Source: Candidatus Portnoybacteria bacterium | Lineage (GTDB): Bacteria; Patescibacteriota; Minisyncoccia; Portnoybacterales; GWB1-42-6 | Reading direction: 5' to 3' | NCBI GenBank assembly: GCA_028688325.1 | Contig: JAQTYI010000001.1 | Location: 31,088-95,087, forward strand | Length of the DNA: 64,000 nucleotides | In this document: in pieces, positions 2,354 through 51,839 of the stretch | Numbering within the stretch: position 1 is the first letter of the stretch | How the letters are laid out: each line of letters opens with the position of its first letter | Notes under the pieces: generated by a model | The model's input: only the letters and a program-made list of their open reading frames with translations | What the model was told of the DNA's origin: nothing | Database searches by the model: none | Made by a program: the position numbers and the translations under genes

Positions 2354-2941
2354 TTAGACAGCTTTCTTTGATTCCCACGATTCGATCCTGAACCGACCGA
2401 AAGGTCCGCGCCGCGCCGGCCGAAAATCACCCAGACCGACAGATGAGCCGGCCCTTTCCACGAGCGTTTTGGCCTTGTCTTCAGCGCAGGCCTTCTCATC
2501 AATCGTGAAAGTCGCCGAGAAGACCCATTTGTCAAACCGAGGCCGCACGATGCAGACCGTGATGCCCTTGCCGGGAATAATCCCTCTTCTCTTGTCCGTT
2601 TTCCATTTTTCCTCCTGATTGTGGAAAGGAAAAAAGATTTCCTCAATGGCCAGGAAAGACGGTAACAAAGTCGTATCCTTGGTGGAGATGGCCCGTTTTC
2701 CCTCCAACTTCACCAAACGGCCGGCTTCCACCAGGCAACTGAAAAGATAGCTGGCCGGGATACCGATTATTCCATTTTCGTTCTTGATCACCTTTTTGGC
2801 TGCTTCCTGATCCGGCGTCTTGTCGGCATCCTTGGCTTTCCTGGCGCCTGCTCCGCCAAAAAGCTCGTTTAACATGTCATCCGTCGCCGGATTCATCAGA
2901 ATCGGCGATACTCCCGTGAATTTGGCCTTTACAGTAATCAT
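2354..2941 (-). CDS. Hypothetical 195-aa protein with RAMP-superfamily (Cas6/Cas7-like) hallmarks
   Basis: Strong Shine-Dalgarno site (aaaggagg, 5-nt spacer) before the ATG. The N-terminus is a beta-strand (ITVKAKFTGVSPILMN) followed by GIPASYLFSCLVEAG, which resembles the RAMP IPGSSxKGxLR box. Near the C-terminus is a glycine-rich loop, VGLGDFRPARRGPFGRF (GxG-x7-GxFG). The assignment comes from motifs only. Confidence 0.35.
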   Translation of the reverse strand: MITVKAKFTGVSPILMNPATDDMLNELFGGAGARKAKDADKTPDQEAAKKVIKNENGIIGIPASYLFSCLVEAGRLVKLEGKRAISTKDTTLLPSFLAIEEIFFPFHNQEEKWKTDKRRGIIPGKGITVCIVRPRFDKWVFSATFTIDEKACAEDKAKTLVERAGSSVGLGDFRPARRGPFGRFRIESWESKKAV

Positions 2942-3186: not shown

Positions 3187-3444
3187 ATGAAAAAAGACAT
3201 CCATCCCCAGTATTATCCCGAAGCCAAGGCCACTTGCGCCTGCGGCAATTCGTTCATCACCGGCTCGACCAAGCCAGAATTGAATGTGGAAATCTGCGCC
3301 CAGTGCCATCCGTTTTATACGGGCAAGGAAAAACTCATCGACACGGCCGGACGCGTTGACCGCTTCCGCAAGATGCAGGCCAAAAAGACCGACATCTCCG
3401 CCAAAAAAGGCGTGAAAAAAGAACGGATAAAGAAACAGAAATAA
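3187..3444 (+). CDS. rpmE: 50S ribosomal protein L31
   Basis: [10 protein letters not shown] start and a CxxC...CxxC zinc-ribbon pattern typical of L31. Confidence 0.9.
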
Positions 3445-3454
3445 TAAAGACAAG

Positions 3455-3580
3455 ACATTTATTGTTCGAGTGAGCGCAACGAATCGAGAGCTGTAAAAGA
3501 CGGAAATTTAACTTCTCGACTTCAGTTTACCCTGAGCTTATCGAAGGGCTTGAAGAATGAATTTCCGTCTTTTTAAAATT
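3455..3580. repeat. Palindromic intergenic element: 13-bp perfect outer stem aaaagacggaaat/atttccgtctttt enclosing the ttattgttcgag..cttctcgact core; a related copy lies at 51775-51835
   Basis: Inverted repeats read from the sequence; the core is shared with the region at 51775-51835. Confidence 0.5.
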
Positions 3581-3582
3581 CT

Positions 3583-4323
3583 ATGGCCAAAGGCGTCATT
3601 TTAGAAATTCGCGCTGGAGCCGGCGGAGACGAAGCCGCGATTTTCGCGGCTAATCTTTTCCGGATGTATTCAAGATACGCCCAATCGCAAGGTTGGAGCT
3701 TTTTGGTTATAGACGAAAGCCGCAATTCCATCGGCGGGCTCAAAGAAATAACCATGGAAATAACGGGCGCGGAGTCCTATGAACAGCTGAAAAATGAAAG
3801 CGGCGTGCATCGCGTCCAGCGGGTTCCCAAAACCGAAAAGAACGGCCGGGTGCACACTTCCACCGCCACTGTCGCCATCCTGCCCAAAGTTGACGCGGCC
3901 GAGATTAGAATCAATCCGCAAGACCTGCAAATTGACGCGGTGCGCTCTTCGGGACCGGGCGGACAAAATGTCAACAAACGCTCCACTGCCGTGCGAATAG
4001 TGCACTTGCCCACCAACACGGTCGTTTTTTCGCAGACCGAGCGTTCGCAGGCGCAAAACAAAGAAATTGCCATGGAGATCTTGCGCGCCAAGGTCTACGA
4101 AAATATGCGCAACAGGGAAATGGCCAGCTTGAGCCAGGAACGAAGAGCGCAAATCGGCACAGCCGACAGGTCCGAGAAAATACGCACCTACAATTATCCG
4201 CAAAACCGCATCACGGACCACCGCATCGGCAAAAGCTGGCACGACCTGGAAACTATCATCGACGGAAAAATGGATCCGATAGTCAAGGCCTTCCGCATAA
4301 CCGCTGATAAAACGGATTTGTAA
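3583..4323 (+). CDS. prfA: Peptide chain release factor 1 lacking the N-terminal domain 1
   Basis: The sequence aligns to RF1 from about residue 108 onward. It has the PxT (PKT) anticodon-mimic motif of the RF1 type and a GGQ motif. An in-frame TAA lies two codons upstream of the ATG, so the ORF cannot extend 5'. Confidence 0.85.
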
Positions 4324-4463: not shown

Positions 4464-5066
4464 ATGGACCCAGCCCAACAGAATTTCTCCATGCCCGGGC
4501 CTCAGTTTGGCAACGGCTCAAATGGCGACTGGCTCAAGAGAAACTCGCACAGGATAGCTTACGCCCTGGTAGCCCTACTGCTTGCCACGGGCGGATTCTA
4601 TTTCTACCGGAGCTACCAAGACAGAACCGCTTTGCTTGAACCGGATTTAAAAGGAATCGTCGCTTTGCCGGCGCCTTCCAGCAGCTCCCCTGCTCAAGCA
4701 AACACGGAAAAGGCAAAAGGCGCCCCGAGCCCGGCTCCGCAAGCCAAGCAAGCCGGCCAAGACATCGTCGCCATCGCCGCCAAAGGCAACGGCGCGACCC
4801 ATCTGGCCCGACAGGCGCTTAAAGAATACCTGAAAGACAAACCGGAACTTGCTCAGAAACTGAAACCGGAGCACCGCATCTTTATCGAGGATTATCTGCA
4901 AAAACATTTGCCCAACAAGCCAAAAACCCTGCGCATCGGCCAGCAACTGACTTTTTCCGCCGATGATTTCCAGGCCGCGATAGATAAGGCCTTGGCCTTA
5001 AACGACAATCAGCTCAAAAATCTCAACAAATATGTTCCCCTCGTTCCTTCTTTAATGACAATCTGA
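4464..5066 (+). CDS. Hypothetical membrane-anchored protein (one predicted TM, Ala/Pro/Gln-rich linker)
   Basis: ORF with a hydrophobic segment (IAYALVALLLATGGFYFY) and no recognisable family. Ends in TGA. Confidence 0.55.
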   Translation: MDPAQQNFSMPGPQFGNGSNGDWLKRNSHRIAYALVALLLATGGFYFYRSYQDRTALLEPDLKGIVALPAPSSSSPAQANTEKAKGAPSPAPQAKQAGQDIVAIAAKGNGATHLARQALKEYLKDKPELAQKLKPEHRIFIEDYLQKHLPNKPKTLRIGQQLTFSADDFQAAIDKALALNDNQLKNLNKYVPLVPSLMTI

Positions 5067-5167
5067 AATAGCATTGCTTGCCGTCCCGAATTTATTTCGG
5101 GATCTCTGTGATTCTGAAACAAGTTCAGAATGACAAATTTTAGACAATATCAAGAAACAATCCAAAC

Positions 5168-5206
5168 TAAAAACCGTCCCGCAACTGCGGGACGGTTTTT
5201 AGTTGC
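5168..5206. terminator. Bidirectional intrinsic terminator between convergent genes
   Basis: aaaaaccgtcccgcaactgcgggacggttttt: a perfect 10-bp stem with A-run and T-run flanks. Confidence 0.7.
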
Positions 5207-10948: not shown

Positions 10949-10984
10949 AAAAAATCGCTTCGAAAGAAGCGATTTTTTTATTTG

Positions 10985-16016: not shown

Positions 16017-16150
16017 ACCAGGTAGTAGAAATTCGGCTATATTCATAAATCCAAACGGACTTAATTAGTTTTGCCAAATTCTATGGTTTTATCAAACTCT
16101 ACCAGTCAGCGATGATTCGGTTAAACCGCCGAATTTTCACTACCTGGTAT
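16014..16150. mobile_element. MITE copy 1a with 20-bp terminal inverted repeats (cataCCAGGTAGTAGAAATT ... AATTTTCACTACCTGGtat), flush against the mutM start codon
   Basis: Perfect TIRs read from the sequence; ATA flanks on both sides, consistent with a 3-bp target-site duplication; the internal sequence is about 80% identical to copy 1b at 48770. Confidence 0.65.
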
Positions 16151-16252
16151 AAATTCAAGCTTATATCTGTTGCTTATATTTTACTCGCCAAACGCCGTAA
16201 AGCCAAGGTATGGGCGAAATAAAAAAGGGAGCCGCATGGACTCCCCGACCGG

Positions 16253-16645
16253 TCATTCATTGCCGGCCACTTCATAAAAAAAGTACAAACACCGCGCTGT
16301 TTTTACGGCAAAATCCTTTCTTTCCCGGAGCAAGGACAGCGGCCGCAGCAGAGCAGAAGACACTTCTTCTATTTGGCCAAGCCGCTGATCAATAAAATAT
16401 ACCACGACCTGCCTCCCCCGCTTTTCTTCGCTCACGGCTATATAGACCTTCCCTTTGTCATAACTGACACAACCCGTCTCCCTGATCATCGTTTTTACTT
16501 CCCCAACTACTTCGTCGACTGTTTTCAGGTAGGCAGCCGACTTTTCGCCGCCATCGAACAAAATTAATCTTTCGGCCTCGCTTTTATCAGAAATCGCAAA
16601 AAGAGCAAAACAAACCGTCAACAACCACCATATTGCCTTTTTCAT
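16253..16645 (-). CDS. Hypothetical secreted protein (signal peptide MKKAIWWLLTVCFALFAIS)
   Basis: ORF using an internal Met that starts a classic signal peptide. Confidence 0.4.
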   Translation of the reverse strand: MKKAIWWLLTVCFALFAISDKSEAERLILFDGGEKSAAYLKTVDEVVGEVKTMIRETGCVSYDKGKVYIAVSEEKRGRQVVVYFIDQRLGQIEEVSSALLRPLSLLRERKDFAVKTARCLYFFYEVAGNE

Positions 16646-16676
16646 AGCTCCTCCTTTGCCTTTGCCGTAAAAAAGT

Positions 16677-17894
16677 TTATAAAAGAACCTTGCCGCCAAT
16701 AATCACCCCGCAAACATCCCCGCCTTGCGCCGCATAGACCAAATGCGAGACCATATTATGACGCGGCTTTAGGCGCGGTTTGTCAAAGTCAATCAATACT
16801 ATATCGGCCTGCTTGCCGATGTCAATGGAACCGATATTTTTATCAATTTTCAACGCTTTGGCGCCGTTTATGGTCGCCATGTCCAAAATTGTCTGTGCGT
16901 CGGCCGCAGCGGGGTTTCTTTCGTCCCATTTATGGATCAGCGCGGCGATTTTCATCTCGCCAAACATATCCAGACAATTATTTGACGCCGGTCCGTCTGT
17001 GCCCAGTGCCACATTAACCCCGGCCTTCAATAATTTTCCCAGCGGCGCGACACCCGAAGATAGTTTCAAATTGGAAACCGGACAATGCGCCACGCTCACT
17101 TTTTGTTTGGCTAAAATTTTTATTTCCTTTTCGCTCAACCAACAGCAATGGGCCGCCACAACATTACCGCCCAAAAATCCTATTTTTTCCAAATATTCAA
17201 CCGGTTGGCATTTGTGTTTTGCCAGGCAATTTTTTACCTCCTCCTCTGTCTCCGATAAATGAATATGCAGCAACAGATCGTTGTCATCGGCAAATTTTTT
17301 ACACCAGCGCAAGGTCTCCTCGCTCACCGCATAAATCGAATGCGGAGTCAAAACCAGTTTTATGTCTTCACCCGTTTTCGATTTTAAGCGTTCGTATTCC
17401 GCGGCAATTTGCGCCGGACCAATGTCCATTCCGCCGCTATCCAACGCCGTCAAACCGACAAAATCCTGCAAACCTATCTCCCGCGCCGCCCTTATTTCCT
17501 GCGCCGGCTGCCAATACATATTATTGAAAGTCGTCGTGCCGCTTTGCAGCATTTCTTGGCAAGCCATTTTCGTTCCCCGACAAATATCTTCCGGCCCCAA
17601 TTTTGCCTCGGCCGGCCAAATCTTTTTTTCCAGCCAATCATTAAGCGGCATATCGTCGGCAAAACCTCTCAATAGCGACATGGCTGCGTGAGTGTGCGCG
17701 TTGATGAGTCCAGGAATCGCCACTTTGCCGCGCCCGTCGATTGTTTTCTTTTTCGCCTTGGCATATTTTTTCTCTAATTTAGCACTTTGGCCGATATCGG
17801 CGATTTTATTCCCCTCAGCCAAAATAGCGCCATCTTCAATGATTTGGCGCTTGCTGTTTTGGGTTACGATGGTTGTGTTCTTAATGAATATCAC
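16677..17894 (-). CDS. Amidohydrolase-family deaminase (MtaD/SAH-MTA deaminase-like chlorohydrolase)
   Basis: Metal-binding HxH (INAHTHAAM), HLSE, and C-terminal D.G..DIVL motifs of the amidohydrolase superfamily. Confidence 0.75.
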   Translation of the reverse strand: MIFIKNTTIVTQNSKRQIIEDGAILAEGNKIADIGQSAKLEKKYAKAKKKTIDGRGKVAIPGLINAHTHAAMSLLRGFADDMPLNDWLEKKIWPAEAKLGPEDICRGTKMACQEMLQSGTTTFNNMYWQPAQEIRAAREIGLQDFVGLTALDSGGMDIGPAQIAAEYERLKSKTGEDIKLVLTPHSIYAVSEETLRWCKKFADDNDLLLHIHLSETEEEVKNCLAKHKCQPVEYLEKIGFLGGNVVAAHCCWLSEKEIKILAKQKVSVAHCPVSNLKLSSGVAPLGKLLKAGVNVALGTDGPASNNCLDMFGEMKIAALIHKWDERNPAAADAQTILDMATINGAKALKIDKNIGSIDIGKQADIVLIDFDKPRLKPRHNMVSHLVYAAQGGDVCGVIIGGKVLL

Positions 17895-17906
17895 CTTGTT
17901 TTTTCT

Positions 17907-18136
17907 CCGCGCATACGAAAAACTTTAAGACAAAATCGAGATGAGCGAGGCGTTTAAAATCGCGTGCTGTGGCGGGGCCCCAAGCGTCAGCTTGGGGCGT
18001 TGTGCATAGCGATTTTAGATGAGCGAATCCGATTTTGTTAAAGTTTTATCGCCGCACGGGAACTCTTTTGCTACTTTTCTGGTTACAGAAAAGTAGATTA
18101 AATTATATTAACCTGGATTCCCGCTTTCGCGGGAAT
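17907..18136. repeat. About 200-bp structured intergenic repeat family, copy 2
   Basis: See copy 1. This copy adds a terminal hairpin attcccgc-tttc-gcgggaat. Confidence 0.75.
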
Positions 18137-18150
18137 GACAGCCGGAGATA

Positions 18151-19185
18151 TTAATTCAGGTTCAACGAATGTATATCCAAAATATATCCCCGATAATCGC
18201 CGCTGCCGACATATTTATAGGTCGGCAAGCCGATGAGCTGGCCGGCCGAATTTATCGCCGCGCCGCCGGAATTGCCCCTGTCAATTTGCGCGTCCGTGCC
18301 AAAATATATATCGCCGGAAGTCAGATTACTGATTATCCCCTTGGTCACGGAAAAATTGAATTTGGCCGATTCCGGGAAGCCGACGATGTAAACCGGATCG
18401 CCGATCTGCGGCTGGCCAACAGCCGACCGAAAAAATTGAAAAGAGTTCAAAATGGGCGCGTTCTGCGTCTGGCCGCCGGCATCCTGATAGATTACATCCT
18501 GAACTTTCAGCAAGGCCGCATCGCGTCCGCTAAAATACCCTGCCACCACCGCCCGATATTCCCTTTTATAGCTCTGGCTGGCGGTGTCATAATCGCCGCT
18601 AAAAAGCACCAGGCAGTAATCGGGCGTTTGCCCGGAAGAAAGCTGCGCCACATGCTGATTGGTTAAGATTTTTCCATCGCTGCTTATCAAAACTCCCGAA
18701 CCCAATTGCCAGGCGCCCAGAGATTTATTTTCACAAGCGATTTGCACCACCTTTTCACTGGCTTTCCATGTTTGTATCAAATTAGCATCACCTCCCGCAA
18801 AGGGCGTTTGGCCGCTTTGCGCCTGAAGCTGCTGCAATTGTTTTTCCAGCGAACTGATTTTTTGGTTTGCGCTGCTTAACGCTTCTTGCGTTTTCAGGTC
18901 CGGCGCTGGAGAGGGCGAAGCGAAAGTCAATGCAACGGCCGAAGGTTGTTTTTTCAGCGCCTCAACTTCTCTTCTTAATTGATCAATCTCCGATTGAGTT
19001 GAAGTTCCGTTGGTATTCAACGATTTAGGAACCAAAGAAAAATCCAATTTTAAATTATTCTGGCCGCCAAAAACTGAGGTAATTTCCCTGAAGATCTTGG
19101 TTTGATATTTGTATATTAAAAAACCGGCCGCACCGACGGCCATTAAAGAAATGGTGACCAAAAAAATAAAATATCTCCTGCTCAT
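18151..19185 (-). CDS. Trypsin-like serine protease (HtrA/S1C-like, no PDZ domain) with N-terminal TM and coiled coil
   Basis: Catalytic triad contexts LTNQHV (His), DAALLKV (Asp) and GNSGGAAIN (Ser). Confidence 0.7.
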   Translation of the reverse strand: MSRRYFIFLVTISLMAVGAAGFLIYKYQTKIFREITSVFGGQNNLKLDFSLVPKSLNTNGTSTQSEIDQLRREVEALKKQPSAVALTFASPSPAPDLKTQEALSSANQKISSLEKQLQQLQAQSGQTPFAGGDANLIQTWKASEKVVQIACENKSLGAWQLGSGVLISSDGKILTNQHVAQLSSGQTPDYCLVLFSGDYDTASQSYKREYRAVVAGYFSGRDAALLKVQDVIYQDAGGQTQNAPILNSFQFFRSAVGQPQIGDPVYIVGFPESAKFNFSVTKGIISNLTSGDIYFGTDAQIDRGNSGGAAINSAGQLIGLPTYKYVGSGDYRGYILDIHSLNLN

Positions 19186-19189
19186 TTTA

Positions 19190-20422
19190 TTACAATGTAA
19201 ACAGATAATAAAACAATAAAACATCGCCCAAAACCAGAAGAACCATAGTCAGCCACCCGCCAAACACGCTTAAGCGCGTGCAGCAAAAATTTCCCATTAC
19301 TTTAGGTTCTCTGGCCAAGCGCAAAATTAAATAGATTATGACCGGCGTTATAGCGCCGACCATTACCTGCGAATAAAATAACGCCTTGATGGGGTTCAAG
19401 TCAAACAGCAACGCGGCCAGACAGAAAACAAAACCGAATGTTATCATCCCGTAAAACCCTTTGGCTTGGCTCGGTTTCCGGTTCAAACCCTCGGGCAGCT
19501 TGAAAAATTCGGCTATGCCATAAGCCGAAGAAACCGCCAAAATAGGAATTGCCAAAATACCCGAACCGATAAGGCCCAAACCGAACAGTTTCGTGGCCCA
19601 CGGCCCGGCCACCGGCGCCAACGCCCGGGCGATGTCTTTAACGGTCAAAATATTTATATCGGTCTTGAGCATAACGCTGGCGCTGGCCACGATGACAAAA
19701 AACGCCGCTAAGGCGCTGTAAATAAATCCCAGCACCACCGCCCGGCTCGAAGAGCTGATCTGCTTTGCGCCTCGCGCCTCTTCGATTTCCTGTTCCGTCT
19801 GCCAAAAAAACGCGTAGGGAGAAAAACTGGTTCCTATCAAGCCCAAGGCCGCCATAAAATACGCAATATTAAATTTTATCGGCGGATAAATGATCGATTT
19901 GAAAATCAAGCCCCAATCGGGCTTAGCCAGGATGCCGGCAAAAAAATAAGCCAGAATGATGCCGGCGAACCAGAAAAAATACCGGGCGATCTTTTTATAG
20001 CTGTCAAAAACTATCACATACCAGACGAAGATTATCAGCGGAACGATGAAATAAATATAATTCCAGCTGGTTAAAAGCTGGAAACCCGCGGCCATGCCGA
20101 TAATATCGGCCACCAGCGTCAGAAGATTGGCCACGACCAAAACCAACACCGCCAAAAGGGCCACGCGCCGGCCGAAATGTTCCTTTATCAAAGTTATGAG
20201 CCCCTTTTTGGTAACATCGCCTATTCGCGCCGTTATCTGATGGATGGCGATAAGCAGAGGAGTTGAAACCAAAAGAAGCCAGAGCTGAGAAAACCCCGTT
20301 GTCGCACCGATCACCGAGTAAGTGGAAATGCTTGACGGATCGTCATCCGCGCTGGCCGTTATGATGCCCGGCAGATAGGACCGGCGAAATCGTTTTATCG
20401 GTTTTAAAAAATAGTGGAGCAT
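19190..20422 (-). CDS. NRAMP-family divalent metal (Mn2+/Fe2+) transporter
   Basis: GIITASADDDPSSISTYSVIGATTGF..LWLL matches the NRAMP DPGN-region consensus; 10-11 predicted TM helices. Confidence 0.7.
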   Translation of the reverse strand: MLHYFLKPIKRFRRSYLPGIITASADDDPSSISTYSVIGATTGFSQLWLLLVSTPLLIAIHQITARIGDVTKKGLITLIKEHFGRRVALLAVLVLVVANLLTLVADIIGMAAGFQLLTSWNYIYFIVPLIIFVWYVIVFDSYKKIARYFFWFAGIILAYFFAGILAKPDWGLIFKSIIYPPIKFNIAYFMAALGLIGTSFSPYAFFWQTEQEIEEARGAKQISSSSRAVVLGFIYSALAAFFVIVASASVMLKTDINILTVKDIARALAPVAGPWATKLFGLGLIGSGILAIPILAVSSAYGIAEFFKLPEGLNRKPSQAKGFYGMITFGFVFCLAALLFDLNPIKALFYSQVMVGAITPVIIYLILRLAREPKVMGNFCCTRLSVFGGWLTMVLLVLGDVLLFYYLFTL

Positions 20423-20555
20423 ACAATTAAAGTATATCTAAATTACCGCTAAAAATAAAGATTCGGGCGCAAAACTTTAACCTGGCGCTAAAACCCCGCC
20501 ATGGCGGGGTTTTAGCGCTTTACTCAAACGCTTATTTATCCGTTAATTTACCGAT

Positions 20556-42310: not shown

Positions 42311-42587
42311 CAAGCCGCCCATAGCGAAAATGGGGGTTGTTCTGCCGCGCATACGAAAAACTTTAAGACAAAATCGAGATGAGCGAGGCGTTTAAAATCG
42401 CGTGCTGTGGCGGGGCCCCAAGCGTCAGCTTGGGGCGTTGTGCATAGCGATTTTAGATGAGCGAATCCGATTTTGTTAAAGTTTTATCGCCGCGCGGGAA
42501 CTCTTTTGCTACTTTTCTGGTTACAGAAAAGTAGATTAAATTATATTAACCTGGATTCCCGCCCCGCATTTGATGCGGGGCGGGAAT
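42311..42587. repeat. About 200-bp structured intergenic repeat family, copy 3 (extended)
   Basis: Nearly identical to copy 2. The terminal hairpin is lengthened to attcccgccccgca-tttga-tgcggggcgggaat, with pairing preserved. Confidence 0.75.
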
Positions 42588-44696: not shown

Positions 44697-46022
44697 ATGA
44701 ACTATTTTACCATTACCTATGGCTGTCAAATGAATAGGTCCGACAGCGAGAAAATCACGACCCGCCTCCGTAAAATGGGTCACCAACCGGCCAAAAACGC
44801 GGCTCTGGCCGAATTAATAGTGGTTAATCTTTGTTCGGTCAGAGAAAGCGCCGTCCATCGCGCGCTGGACCAGATACATAAACTATCTGATGGTCGAAAA
44901 AAAATAATCGCGGCCGGATGCATTCTGCCGCAAGACAGAAAAAAGCTGGCTGCCAAAAATATCGCTATCTGGCACCCGGATGATTATTTTTCGCAAGTCC
45001 CCCTGCGGGAAAGCGAATTCAGCGTGTTCGTGCCGATAATGACCGGCTGCAACAACTTCTGTTCTTATTGCGCCGTGCCCTTCACGCGGGGCAGAGAAAA
45101 ATCACGCCCCGCCAAAGAAATAATCGCCGAAATAAAAAAACTGCTCAAAAACGGAGCTAAAGAGATAATTTTGCTTGGGCAGAATGTGAATTCTTATAAA
45201 GATACCGCCGAAACATTTAATCCCCCCACCCCCCTTTTGCGTAAGGGGGGCGAAAAACCCGTATCTGCCTCCCTTGTAAAAAGGGGGGCGGGGGGATTAA
45301 AAAATACCTCGATCGACTTTCCGGCCCTATTAATAATAATCAACGCCCTCTCCGGCAACTTCCGCCTTTCCTTCATCACTTCCCATCCCAAAGATATGTC
45401 GGATAAGCTGATTGAAACGATGGCCAAGTGTAAAAAAATTATTCCTTATTTGCATTTGCCCGTTCAAAGCGGCGACGACAAGATCTTGCGGGCTATGAAC
45501 AGACATTATAGTGTCGCGCATTATAAAAATTTGATAAAAAAGATCCACTCCTCCTTTGCCCGCTGGCGGGCTTCGGAGGACAAGCCGCCCTTTTCTCCCA
45601 TAGCCATCTCCACCGACATAATTGTTGGCTTTCCCGGCGAAACTGCTAAACAATTTCAAAACACGCTAAAACTGATAAAGAATGTTAATTTTGATATGAT
45701 ATATTTTGCCCGGTATTCTCCGCGATCCGGCACCGCGGCCGCCAAATTAAAAGACAATGTTTCGCCGAAAGAAAAAAGACGCCGGGCGCAAGTGATAAAT
45801 TCCCTGCTAAAAAAACAGGCACTGGAGTTGAATAAAAAATATATCGGGCAAGAAGTCGAGATACTGGTGGAAAAAGTCGACGCGAACTGGGCCCGGGGAA
45901 AAACTTCAACTAACAAGGAAGTGATGTTGCCGCGAAAAAAATTGAAGATAGGACAATTTACAACGGTAAAAATAACCGAAGCCGCCGCTTGGCATTTGAA
46001 GGGATTAGAAAAGCCGCGCTAA
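44697..46022 (+). CDS. miaB: MiaB/RimO-family radical-SAM methylthiotransferase (likely tRNA i6A37 methylthiotransferase) with an in-frame insert of about 25 aa
   Basis: N-terminal MTTase domain (YGCQMN), radical-SAM CNNFCSYC, TRAM domain. The insert TFNPPTPLLRKGGEKPVSASLVKRGAGGLK is encoded by the poly-G/C palindrome at 45218-45300. Confidence 0.85.
   Translation: MNYFTITYGCQMNRSDSEKITTRLRKMGHQPAKNAALAELIVVNLCSVRESAVHRALDQIHKLSDGRKKIIAAGCILPQDRKKLAAKNIAIWHPDDYFSQVPLRESEFSVFVPIMTGCNNFCSYCAVPFTRGREKSRPAKEIIAEIKKLLKNGAKEIILLGQNVNSYKDTAETFNPPTPLLRKGGEKPVSASLVKRGAGGLKNTSIDFPALLIIINALSGNFRLSFITSHPKDMSDKLIETMAKCKKIIPYLHLPVQSGDDKILRAMNRHYSVAHYKNLIKKIHSSFARWRASEDKPPFSPIAISTDIIVGFPGETAKQFQNTLKLIKNVNFDMIYFARYSPRSGTAAAKLKDNVSPKEKRRRAQVINSLLKKQALELNKKYIGQEVEILVEKVDANWARGKTSTNKEVMLPRKKLKIGQFTTVKITEAAAWHLKGLEKPR
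45218..45300. repeat. Poly-G/poly-C palindromic element inserted in frame in miaB
   Basis: aatccccccaccccccttttgcgtaaggggggcgaaaaacccgtatctgcctcccttgtaaaaaggggggcggggggatt. Confidence 0.7.
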
Positions 46023-51690: not shown

Positions 51691-51839
51691 CTTAAAATTT
51701 GAAACGGCGCAAATAAAAAAGGGGTTCTTGATATTTAATTTATACCAGAAAACCCCCGTTTAATCAATGACGCTATTTTTATTGTTCGAGCTTGTCGAGA
51801 ACTATTTTAACTTCTCGACTCCGCTCTAAGAATAATTGA

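Follow-up and report, generated by a model that had tools for sequence, protein, structure and literature searches.

The window analysed here, a 64-kb stretch of DNA (64,000 nucleotides) from contig JAQTYI010000001.1 of a Candidatus Portnoybacteria bacterium, carries a short prfA gene (3583..4323, + strand, 246 aa) whose product comprises domains 2, 3 and 4 of release factor 1 (RF1), as placed by Pfam, NCBIfam and PDB alignments. We consider this open reading frame (ORF) very probably to be the orthologous prfA, encoding an RF1 that naturally lacks domain 1, the loss being old and clade-wide and unrelated to a hairpin in the spacer just upstream. Domain 1 is the N-terminal helical domain of RF1, about 105 aa long, which contacts RF3 and the L11/L7-L12 stalk.

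The RF1 core and its reading frame

An earlier note on this DNA had described the product as matching RF1 only from about residue 108 and as missing the whole of domain 1, and the alignments bear out both statements. Pfam PCRF (PF03462, E-value 4e-46) was matched only at profile positions 100–194 of 194, and the RF-1 domain (PF00472, 2e-38) was matched in full. Alignment to the NCBIfam prfA models begins at position 104 (NF001859) or 112 (TIGR00019; 112–352 of 361), and alignment to solved RF1 chains begins at residue 123 in S. mutans, 88 in T. maritima, 106 in T. thermophilus and 110 in E. coli, the short protein aligning end to end with ~47–55% identity to domains 2–4. Its first methionine is equivalent to roughly residue 107 in the E. 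coli factor, and 6–7 residues precede the first strand of domain 2.

Judged by its sequence, the short protein conserves every element required for UAA/UAG recognition and for hydrolysis. The GAGGDE segment at the tip of helix alpha5 (aa 12–17; 3616..3633, + strand) contains the GxxE motif, and its G12, G14, G15 and E17 are invariant in a 64-sequence alignment; presumably this G-x-x-E reads U1 of the stop codon, as in established RF1 structures. As the earlier note had it, PKT and GGQ are both retained and can be read directly from the DNA: the PxT 'tripeptide anticodon' is PKT (aa 82–84; 3826..3834, + strand), which stands in the context RVQRVPKTE and is of the RF1 type, not the SPF of RF2, and the catalytic motif is GGQ (aa 126–128; 3958..3966, + strand). 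P82, T84, G126, G127 and Q128 are invariant in the same alignment, and PxT and GGQ occur together in 120 of 120 relatives. The Q and T of the third-base pocket are also kept, and HTST is present. An AlphaFold2 model built with the 64 sequences (mean pLDDT 86.9) contains domains 2 and 4, and in Foldseek it matched T. thermophilus RF1 on the 70S ribosome (9mtr, 9mtq) with a TM-score of 0.93 and a root-mean-square deviation of 2.0–2.1 Å over ~247 columns; the short RF1 is thus predicted to adopt the open, ribosome-bound RF1 shape.

Upstream of prfA lies rpmE (3187..3444, + strand), which encodes the 85-aa ribosomal protein L31 (Pfam PF01197, 2e-30) and ends in TAA TAA, and the two genes are separated by a 138-bp spacer running from the rpmE stop to the prfA ATG (3445..3582, + strand). 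The earlier note had closed the prfA frame with an in-frame TAA two codons before the ATG; the TAA (3574–3576, + strand) is indeed in frame and does block extension, but it is the third codon upstream, with two codons, AAT and TCT, between it and the ATG and no ATG, GTG or TTG usable as an upstream start. Because every one of the three spacer frames is interrupted by stops, leaving room for no more than ~45 aa, a ~100-aa domain 1 cannot be hidden in it. Nor does a frameshift or assembly error conceal an upstream part of the gene, since the 120 best homologue clusters are all concordant and independent assemblies share the same synteny.

Conservation and age of the short form

Our homologue set consisted of the best 120 clusters at 90% identity, which were 61–100% identical to the window protein. 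All 120 shared the architecture of the window protein, and the short form is therefore lineage-wide. Most (117/120) were 234–262 aa long; of the remaining three, two were fragments of 197 and 214 aa, and the third, at 281 aa, bore a short, unrelated tail at its N terminus. The typical E-I-R-A-G-x-G-G strand was present in 114 of the 120, and the proteins begin 1–24 residues (mostly 6–11) before it. Where organism names were given they were Portnoybacteria, 'Parcubacteria group' or 'Patescibacteria group'. Comparison with three orthologues, each taken from a species-representative genome and sharing 83–85% protein identity (L003, L004 and L005), gave a Nei-Gojobori dN/dS of 0.059–0.105, with dS near saturation, a signature of strong purifying selection. 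As the clusters are concordant, dN/dS is low and the fold is confident, we take the gene to be an intact, selected RF1 core.

When the core domains were placed in a neighbour-joining (NJ) tree, all 61 short forms sampled fell into one contiguous block, within which P0124 and P0098 (30-aa unrelated N-terminal tail) were nested; this contiguity indicates that the loss of domain 1 in the short form was probably ancient and single. When one representative was searched per 50%-identity cluster, the short family came down essentially to P0123 (242 aa) and P0124 (269 aa), and the next matches were full-length RF1s of 345–361 aa with 55–58% identity. Several other candidates for natural short RF1s were rejected: P0127, P0141, P0186, P0197, P0132, P0144 and P0245 are frameshifted, chimeric or partial gene calls, and P0121 is a tandem-duplicated chimera.

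We weighed whether the gene could instead be a specialised paralogue, i.e., a rescue or alternative factor of the PrfH or ArfB type, with a canonical full-length RF1 encoded elsewhere in the genome. PrfH likewise has no domain 1 (PMC1586002, PMC6514570), and the sequence that was read is a small part of the genome. However, the short protein scored 378.6 bits against NF001859 (cut-off 400) and 373.4 bits against TIGR00019 (cut-off 423.25), compared with 240 bits for RF2, 89.6 for PrfH (TIGR03072, cut-off 166.65) and 45 for ArfB (cut-off 100), so that both rescue-factor models are left below their own cut-offs. The prfA scores also fall short of the equivalog cut-offs, a deficit caused by the missing domain 1, and it is for this reason that the protein carries only the NCBI name 'PCRF domain-containing protein'. 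In addition, the RF1-specific PxT is kept, the gene sits in the ancestral rpmE-prfA locus with no RtcB neighbour, and the nearest full-length RF1s come from other lineages (Sungbacteria, GW2011_GWA2_45_30). In the 64-kb window, tblastn searches with the protein itself, with E. coli RF1 and with E. coli domain 1 found no second RF1 or domain 1 at E < 10. Taken together, we regard a specialised paralogue as unlikely.

A split gene, in which domain 1 persists as a separate polypeptide that associates in trans, is in our estimation very improbable. Nothing favours it directly, although domain 1 is described as a flexibly attached, autonomous helical bundle (PMC1586002). The same tblastn searches returned no domain-1-like sequence in the window, and the conserved neighbours of the gene (a 200-aa ORF, an SLT-like protein and L25) do not resemble domain 1. 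Moreover, sister lineages carry partial, internal deletions of domain 1, which argues for erosion rather than fission.

These partial deletions came to light in a search with the nearest full-length relative, P0125, whose kin are Sungbacteria-like and other Parcubacteria with RF1s of ~336–360 aa. Among them were ~30 clusters of RF1s of only 290–312 aa from Sungbacteria-like Parcubacteria (P0452, P0486, P0494–P0530), e.g., P0504, a 303-aa protein from a 923,469-nt Sungiibacteriota contig that is also named 'PCRF domain-containing protein'. In this class the first ~45 residues of domain 1 (helices 1–2) are kept and the second half is gone. The half-deleted proteins thus come from the same group of organisms and follow the same trend of domain 1 reduction, but unlike the Portnoybacteria form they retain helices 1–2. 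They make up two groups inside the full-length RF1 clade of the NJ tree and, given that placement, the half-deletion arose independently of the full loss. Judging from these protein sequences, this part of the candidate phyla radiation (CPR) has seen several reductions of domain 1, not all of the same kind. A further RF1, from a 57%-GC Patescibacteria genome (L006:2449-3528, 62% identity), apparently keeps only the second half of domain 1, with ~48 aa before EIRAG if the start is taken as MNHPELIEQLK; a longer GTG-initiated ORF upstream of that start looks non-coding.

The rpmE-prfA spacer and neighbouring genes

The earlier note had also reported a palindrome with a 13-bp perfect stem in the spacer and had proposed that its insertion caused the truncation. 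The palindrome is real and its stem perfect, but the arms are 14 nt: they form a long hairpin (3495..3573, + strand; arms 3495–3508 and 3560–3573) around a structured 51-nt interior, flanked by an A-run on the 5' side and by TTTTT (3570–3574) on the 3' side. A 93-nt segment containing it has a 16-bp basal stem and a folding energy of -27.5 kcal/mol (z = -3.97), and none of 200 shuffled sequences was as stable. Within the 64 kb the arms occur only at 3495 and 3560, with no further copies, and since they are found nowhere else in the window the hairpin is not demonstrably a repeated mobile element. In this it differs from repetitive extragenic palindromic (REP) or miniature inverted-repeat transposable element (MITE)-like elements, which are multi-copy palindromes; its arms are single-copy in the 64 kb, and the hairpin is absent from relatives. 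An Rfam scan of the spacer gave no real match, only a meaningless hit to a miRNA model far below threshold.

With intrinsic terminators the hairpin shares an A-run, a stem and a T-run, but its interior is 51 nt as opposed to the usual loop of 3–8 nt. Perfect 13–19-nt palindromes with the same A-run/stem/T-run layout, resembling bidirectional intrinsic terminators, were seen at 5165–5204, 20485–20518, 42555–42587 and 10949–10978 in the window; the first separates two convergent genes (ends at 5066 and 5213), and the remaining three apparently lie between ORFs. As such hairpins stand between genes of the window, the spacer hairpin is, from its shape, most simply a putative terminator-like or attenuator structure behind rpmE.

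That an element of this kind inserted between rpmE and prfA and cut domain 1 off in this genome is suggested by the presence of a strong hairpin with perfect 14-nt arms directly before the shortened gene, and by a second occurrence of parts of the spacer within the window. The relatives speak decisively against it. At 61–85% identity they have the same short gene, but the gap between rpmE and prfA is 132 bp of unrelated sequence in L003, 64 bp in L005, 31 bp in both L021 and L023, 13 bp in L004 and -4 bp in L019, where the genes overlap at ATGA (L019:9795-10720), and no palindrome was found in L003, L004, L005, L019 or L023. By blastn the window spacer was matched solely in L001 and L002, in both of which it is identical. 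The short form spans all 120 best clusters in one clade, the arms are unique within the window, and a dN/dS of ~0.07 speaks for long-term function. Insertion as the cause of the truncation is therefore scarcely credible, and that part of the earlier note has to be given up. Since domain 1 was already gone in the common ancestor, the spacer element would have arrived later in the line of the window strain; from these comparisons the hairpin appears to be a later, strain-specific feature, unconnected with the loss of domain 1.

The chance that the short gene is a pseudogene, a mis-assembly or a gene-calling artefact is negligible: short-looking entries in the 50%-identity search (P0127, P0141, P0186 and P0197) did turn out to be frameshifted or partial calls, but the window gene is under strong purifying selection, has a confident, intact fold and 120 concordant clusters, follows an rpmE that in relatives abuts or overlaps the prfA start, and encodes a protein that is identical in two independent assemblies, namely the 788,852-bp contig JAQTTM010000001.1 (GCA_028710785.1, a Candidatus Portnoybacteria metagenome-assembled genome) and an ENA contig.

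Some points weigh against our reading of the gene as an orthologous prfA with an old loss of domain 1 and an unrelated, terminator-like hairpin. A full-length prfA, a separate domain-1 protein, prfB or prfC may sit outside the 64 kb and the ~6 kb of flank that were read of the 789-kb contig, the score is under the NCBI equivalog cut-off (373 versus 423 bits), and the putative RF1 function draws on sequence and predicted fold. As to the hairpin, a consensus terminator scan did not call it, the loop being above 8 nt. If it does terminate transcription, prfA would need a promoter of its own, and the sole sigma-70-like match is weak (3550–3579, 9/12) and too close to the prfA ATG.

Parts of the spacer belong to a two-copy intergenic repeat. 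Copy 1 (3458..3521, + strand) has exact blocks at 3458–3470 and 3507–3521 with the left arm of the hairpin between them, and copy 2 (51778..51820, + strand) has a core hairpin GTCGAGAA-N10-TTCTCGAC (z -3.9). The blocks, of 13 nt (TTTATTGTTCGAG) and 15 nt (TTTAACTTCTCGACT), are exact and have the same order and orientation in both copies, and they surround a TCGAGA(A/G)...TTCTCGA hairpin. Elsewhere in the window (45216–45301) we observed a 23-nt inverted repeat, TTTAATCCCCCCACCCCCCTTTT / AAAAGGGGGGCGGGGGGATTAAA, 96% complementary with its halves 40 nt apart, which lies in frame inside a MiaB-like radical-SAM gene (ORF 44697..46022, + strand) and contributes about 30 additional residues (TFNPPTPLLRKGGEKPVSASLVKRGAGGLKN) to the product; the repeat has the look of a palindromic element inserted in frame, reminiscent of the Rickettsia palindromic elements.

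In all relatives examined rpmE is upstream of the short prfA. In L019, L021 and L023 the order is tsf-rpsB, divergent, followed by rpmE-prfA and by convergent genes for an SLT-like protein and rplY. The ATGA overlap in L019 suggests that translation of L31 and RF1 is coupled in the L019 lineage. In this genome rpsB-tsf is separated from rpmE by a 195-aa ORF (window 2354–2941, - strand) with no Pfam match on record and by a gene for a DEAD/ResIII helicase (L001:6166-7956); they are a local insertion upstream of the rpmE-prfA pair, as rpsB abuts rpmE in L019, L021 and L023. Downstream of prfA is a conserved 200-aa ORF (4464..5066, + strand) without a Pfam match that ends in a TGA stop; it has the appearance of a membrane-anchored protein, and its orthologues in L003, L004 and L005 terminate at the identical residue, ...VPLVPSLMT(x). 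The starts of prfA (3583), rpmE (3187) and ORF 4464 have no Shine-Dalgarno-like purine run before them, and neither do the prfA starts of L004, L005 and L019; translation initiation in the Portnoybacteria lineage may be Shine-Dalgarno-independent. L021, whose RF1 is 269 aa long, also encodes a PEP-utilising enzyme interrupted by a LAGLIDADG-containing intein, along with two stand-alone LAGLIDADG genes and an MG2-domain protein of 2,873 aa (L021:1-5307, 16043-19696).

Proposed mode of termination without domain 1

In the mechanism we propose, the short protein would be the cell's RF1, reading UAA and UAG in the A site and hydrolysing peptidyl-tRNA like an ordinary RF1. Once the peptide is released, the short RF1 would come off the ribosome without recycling by RF3, dissociating spontaneously or being helped by RRF and EF-G. 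Departure without RF3 fits what is known of an engineered E. coli RF1 from which domain 1 was removed (Mora, Zavialov, Ehrenberg & Buckingham 2003, Mol Microbiol 50:1467; summarised in PMC1586002). This truncated factor releases peptide in vitro, functions in vivo and loses only its response to RF3, i.e., the stimulated nucleotide exchange on RF3. The truncation lies at practically the same boundary as in the window protein, and domain 1 is described as the least conserved domain and as flexibly attached (PMC1586002). The E. coli protein is a laboratory construct, whereas the window form is natural, lineage-fixed and under purifying selection; by analogy, the construct would nevertheless be the best functional model for the short RF1.

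Whether the absence of RF3 would suffice to explain the loss is a separate matter. Domain 1 is kept by the RF1 of Bacillus, Mycobacterium, Streptomyces, Mycoplasma, Chlamydia and Rickettsia, all of them RF3-less. RF3 is absent from these genera and, in all, from 72 of 191 genomes, most small ones included, and a weaker binding of the class-I factor has been proposed to compensate for it (PMC1780047). Because other RF3-less bacteria retain domain 1, the absence of RF3 is at most permissive and not the whole explanation; its retention in many such bacteria also implies that domain 1 has another role, e.g., in docking at L11/L7-L12. The loss of domain 1 thus says something further about the CPR ribosome or its stalk.

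Within the window, which is 8% of the contig, we found no prfB, no prfC and no second prfA. TGA is the terminal codon of 7 of the 54 long ORFs in the window, ORF 4464..5066 among them, and as TGA works as a stop, RF2 activity is expected. A search for RF2 was seeded with L016 prfB, a Kazan-like Patescibacteria gene (L016:3640-4729) that has a full domain 1 and a programmed +1 frameshift site (GGAGG TAT CTT TGA C) and is flanked by infC upstream and ftsE-ftsX downstream. The best 120 matches were from Kazan/Kerfeldbacteria and nearly all were full-length, at 307 aa or more, with three shorter matches, on contigs of ~1–2 kb, that look like fragments; no Portnoybacteria-named RF2 was among these 120.

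Compared with known systems, the short protein shares with canonical RF1 (TIGR00019/NF001859) domains 2–4, PxT, GGQ, GxxE, the predicted fold and the rpmE-linked locus, and it differs in the missing domain 1. PrfH, or RF-H (TIGR03072), also naturally lacks domain 1 and has a decoding-type domain and a GGQ motif, but its decoding residues are divergent, it partners RtcB and it functions in ribosome or RNA repair, whereas the short RF1 has RF1 motifs and no RtcB neighbour. ArfB/ICT1/mtRF-R have in common with it a GGQ domain and action without RF3, but they have no domains 2 and 4 and use a C-terminal tail; the ArfB model was matched over 34 residues only, and the short RF1 keeps both of those domains. 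In a broad survey of release factors across bacteria, PrfH and ArfB are the only ones listed without domain 1 (PMC6514570), and a study of the reduced ribosomes of the CPR is silent on release factors (PMC9297842). Searches of the literature on release factors in CPR, Patescibacteria and Parcubacteria turned up neither an account of a natural RF1 that lacks domain 1 nor any remark on RF3 in the CPR. The short RF1s are nonetheless already public under generic names, 'PCRF domain-containing protein' and 'peptide chain release factor 1', and what we describe is a natural variant of a known factor, in line with what the engineered truncation predicts. As the short genes fail equivalog cut-offs, automated surveys may record prfA as missing.

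Canonical RF1 and RF2 are generally described as always having domain 1, and here a housekeeping RF1 lacks it. We lean, with modest confidence, towards a wider claim, namely that a phylum-level CPR lineage (Portnoybacteria and allied Parcubacteria) ends all of its UAA and UAG reading frames with a single RF1 that has no GTPase- and stalk-interacting domain, while neighbouring lineages have independently deleted half of it. The mechanism of RF3-less termination has been described as still unresolved (PMC1780047), and the short RF1s help to ask whether weaker binding substitutes for RF3; together with the relatives at intermediate stages they offer natural sequences for asking what domain 1 is for and how the CPR stalk differs. 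If a single RF1 without domain 1 does serve these cells, they would represent a natural, long-running experiment in terminating without RF3 or the stalk, one that may have evolved together with the reduced CPR ribosome, and domain 1 would be an add-on that is dispensable in vivo over evolutionary time.

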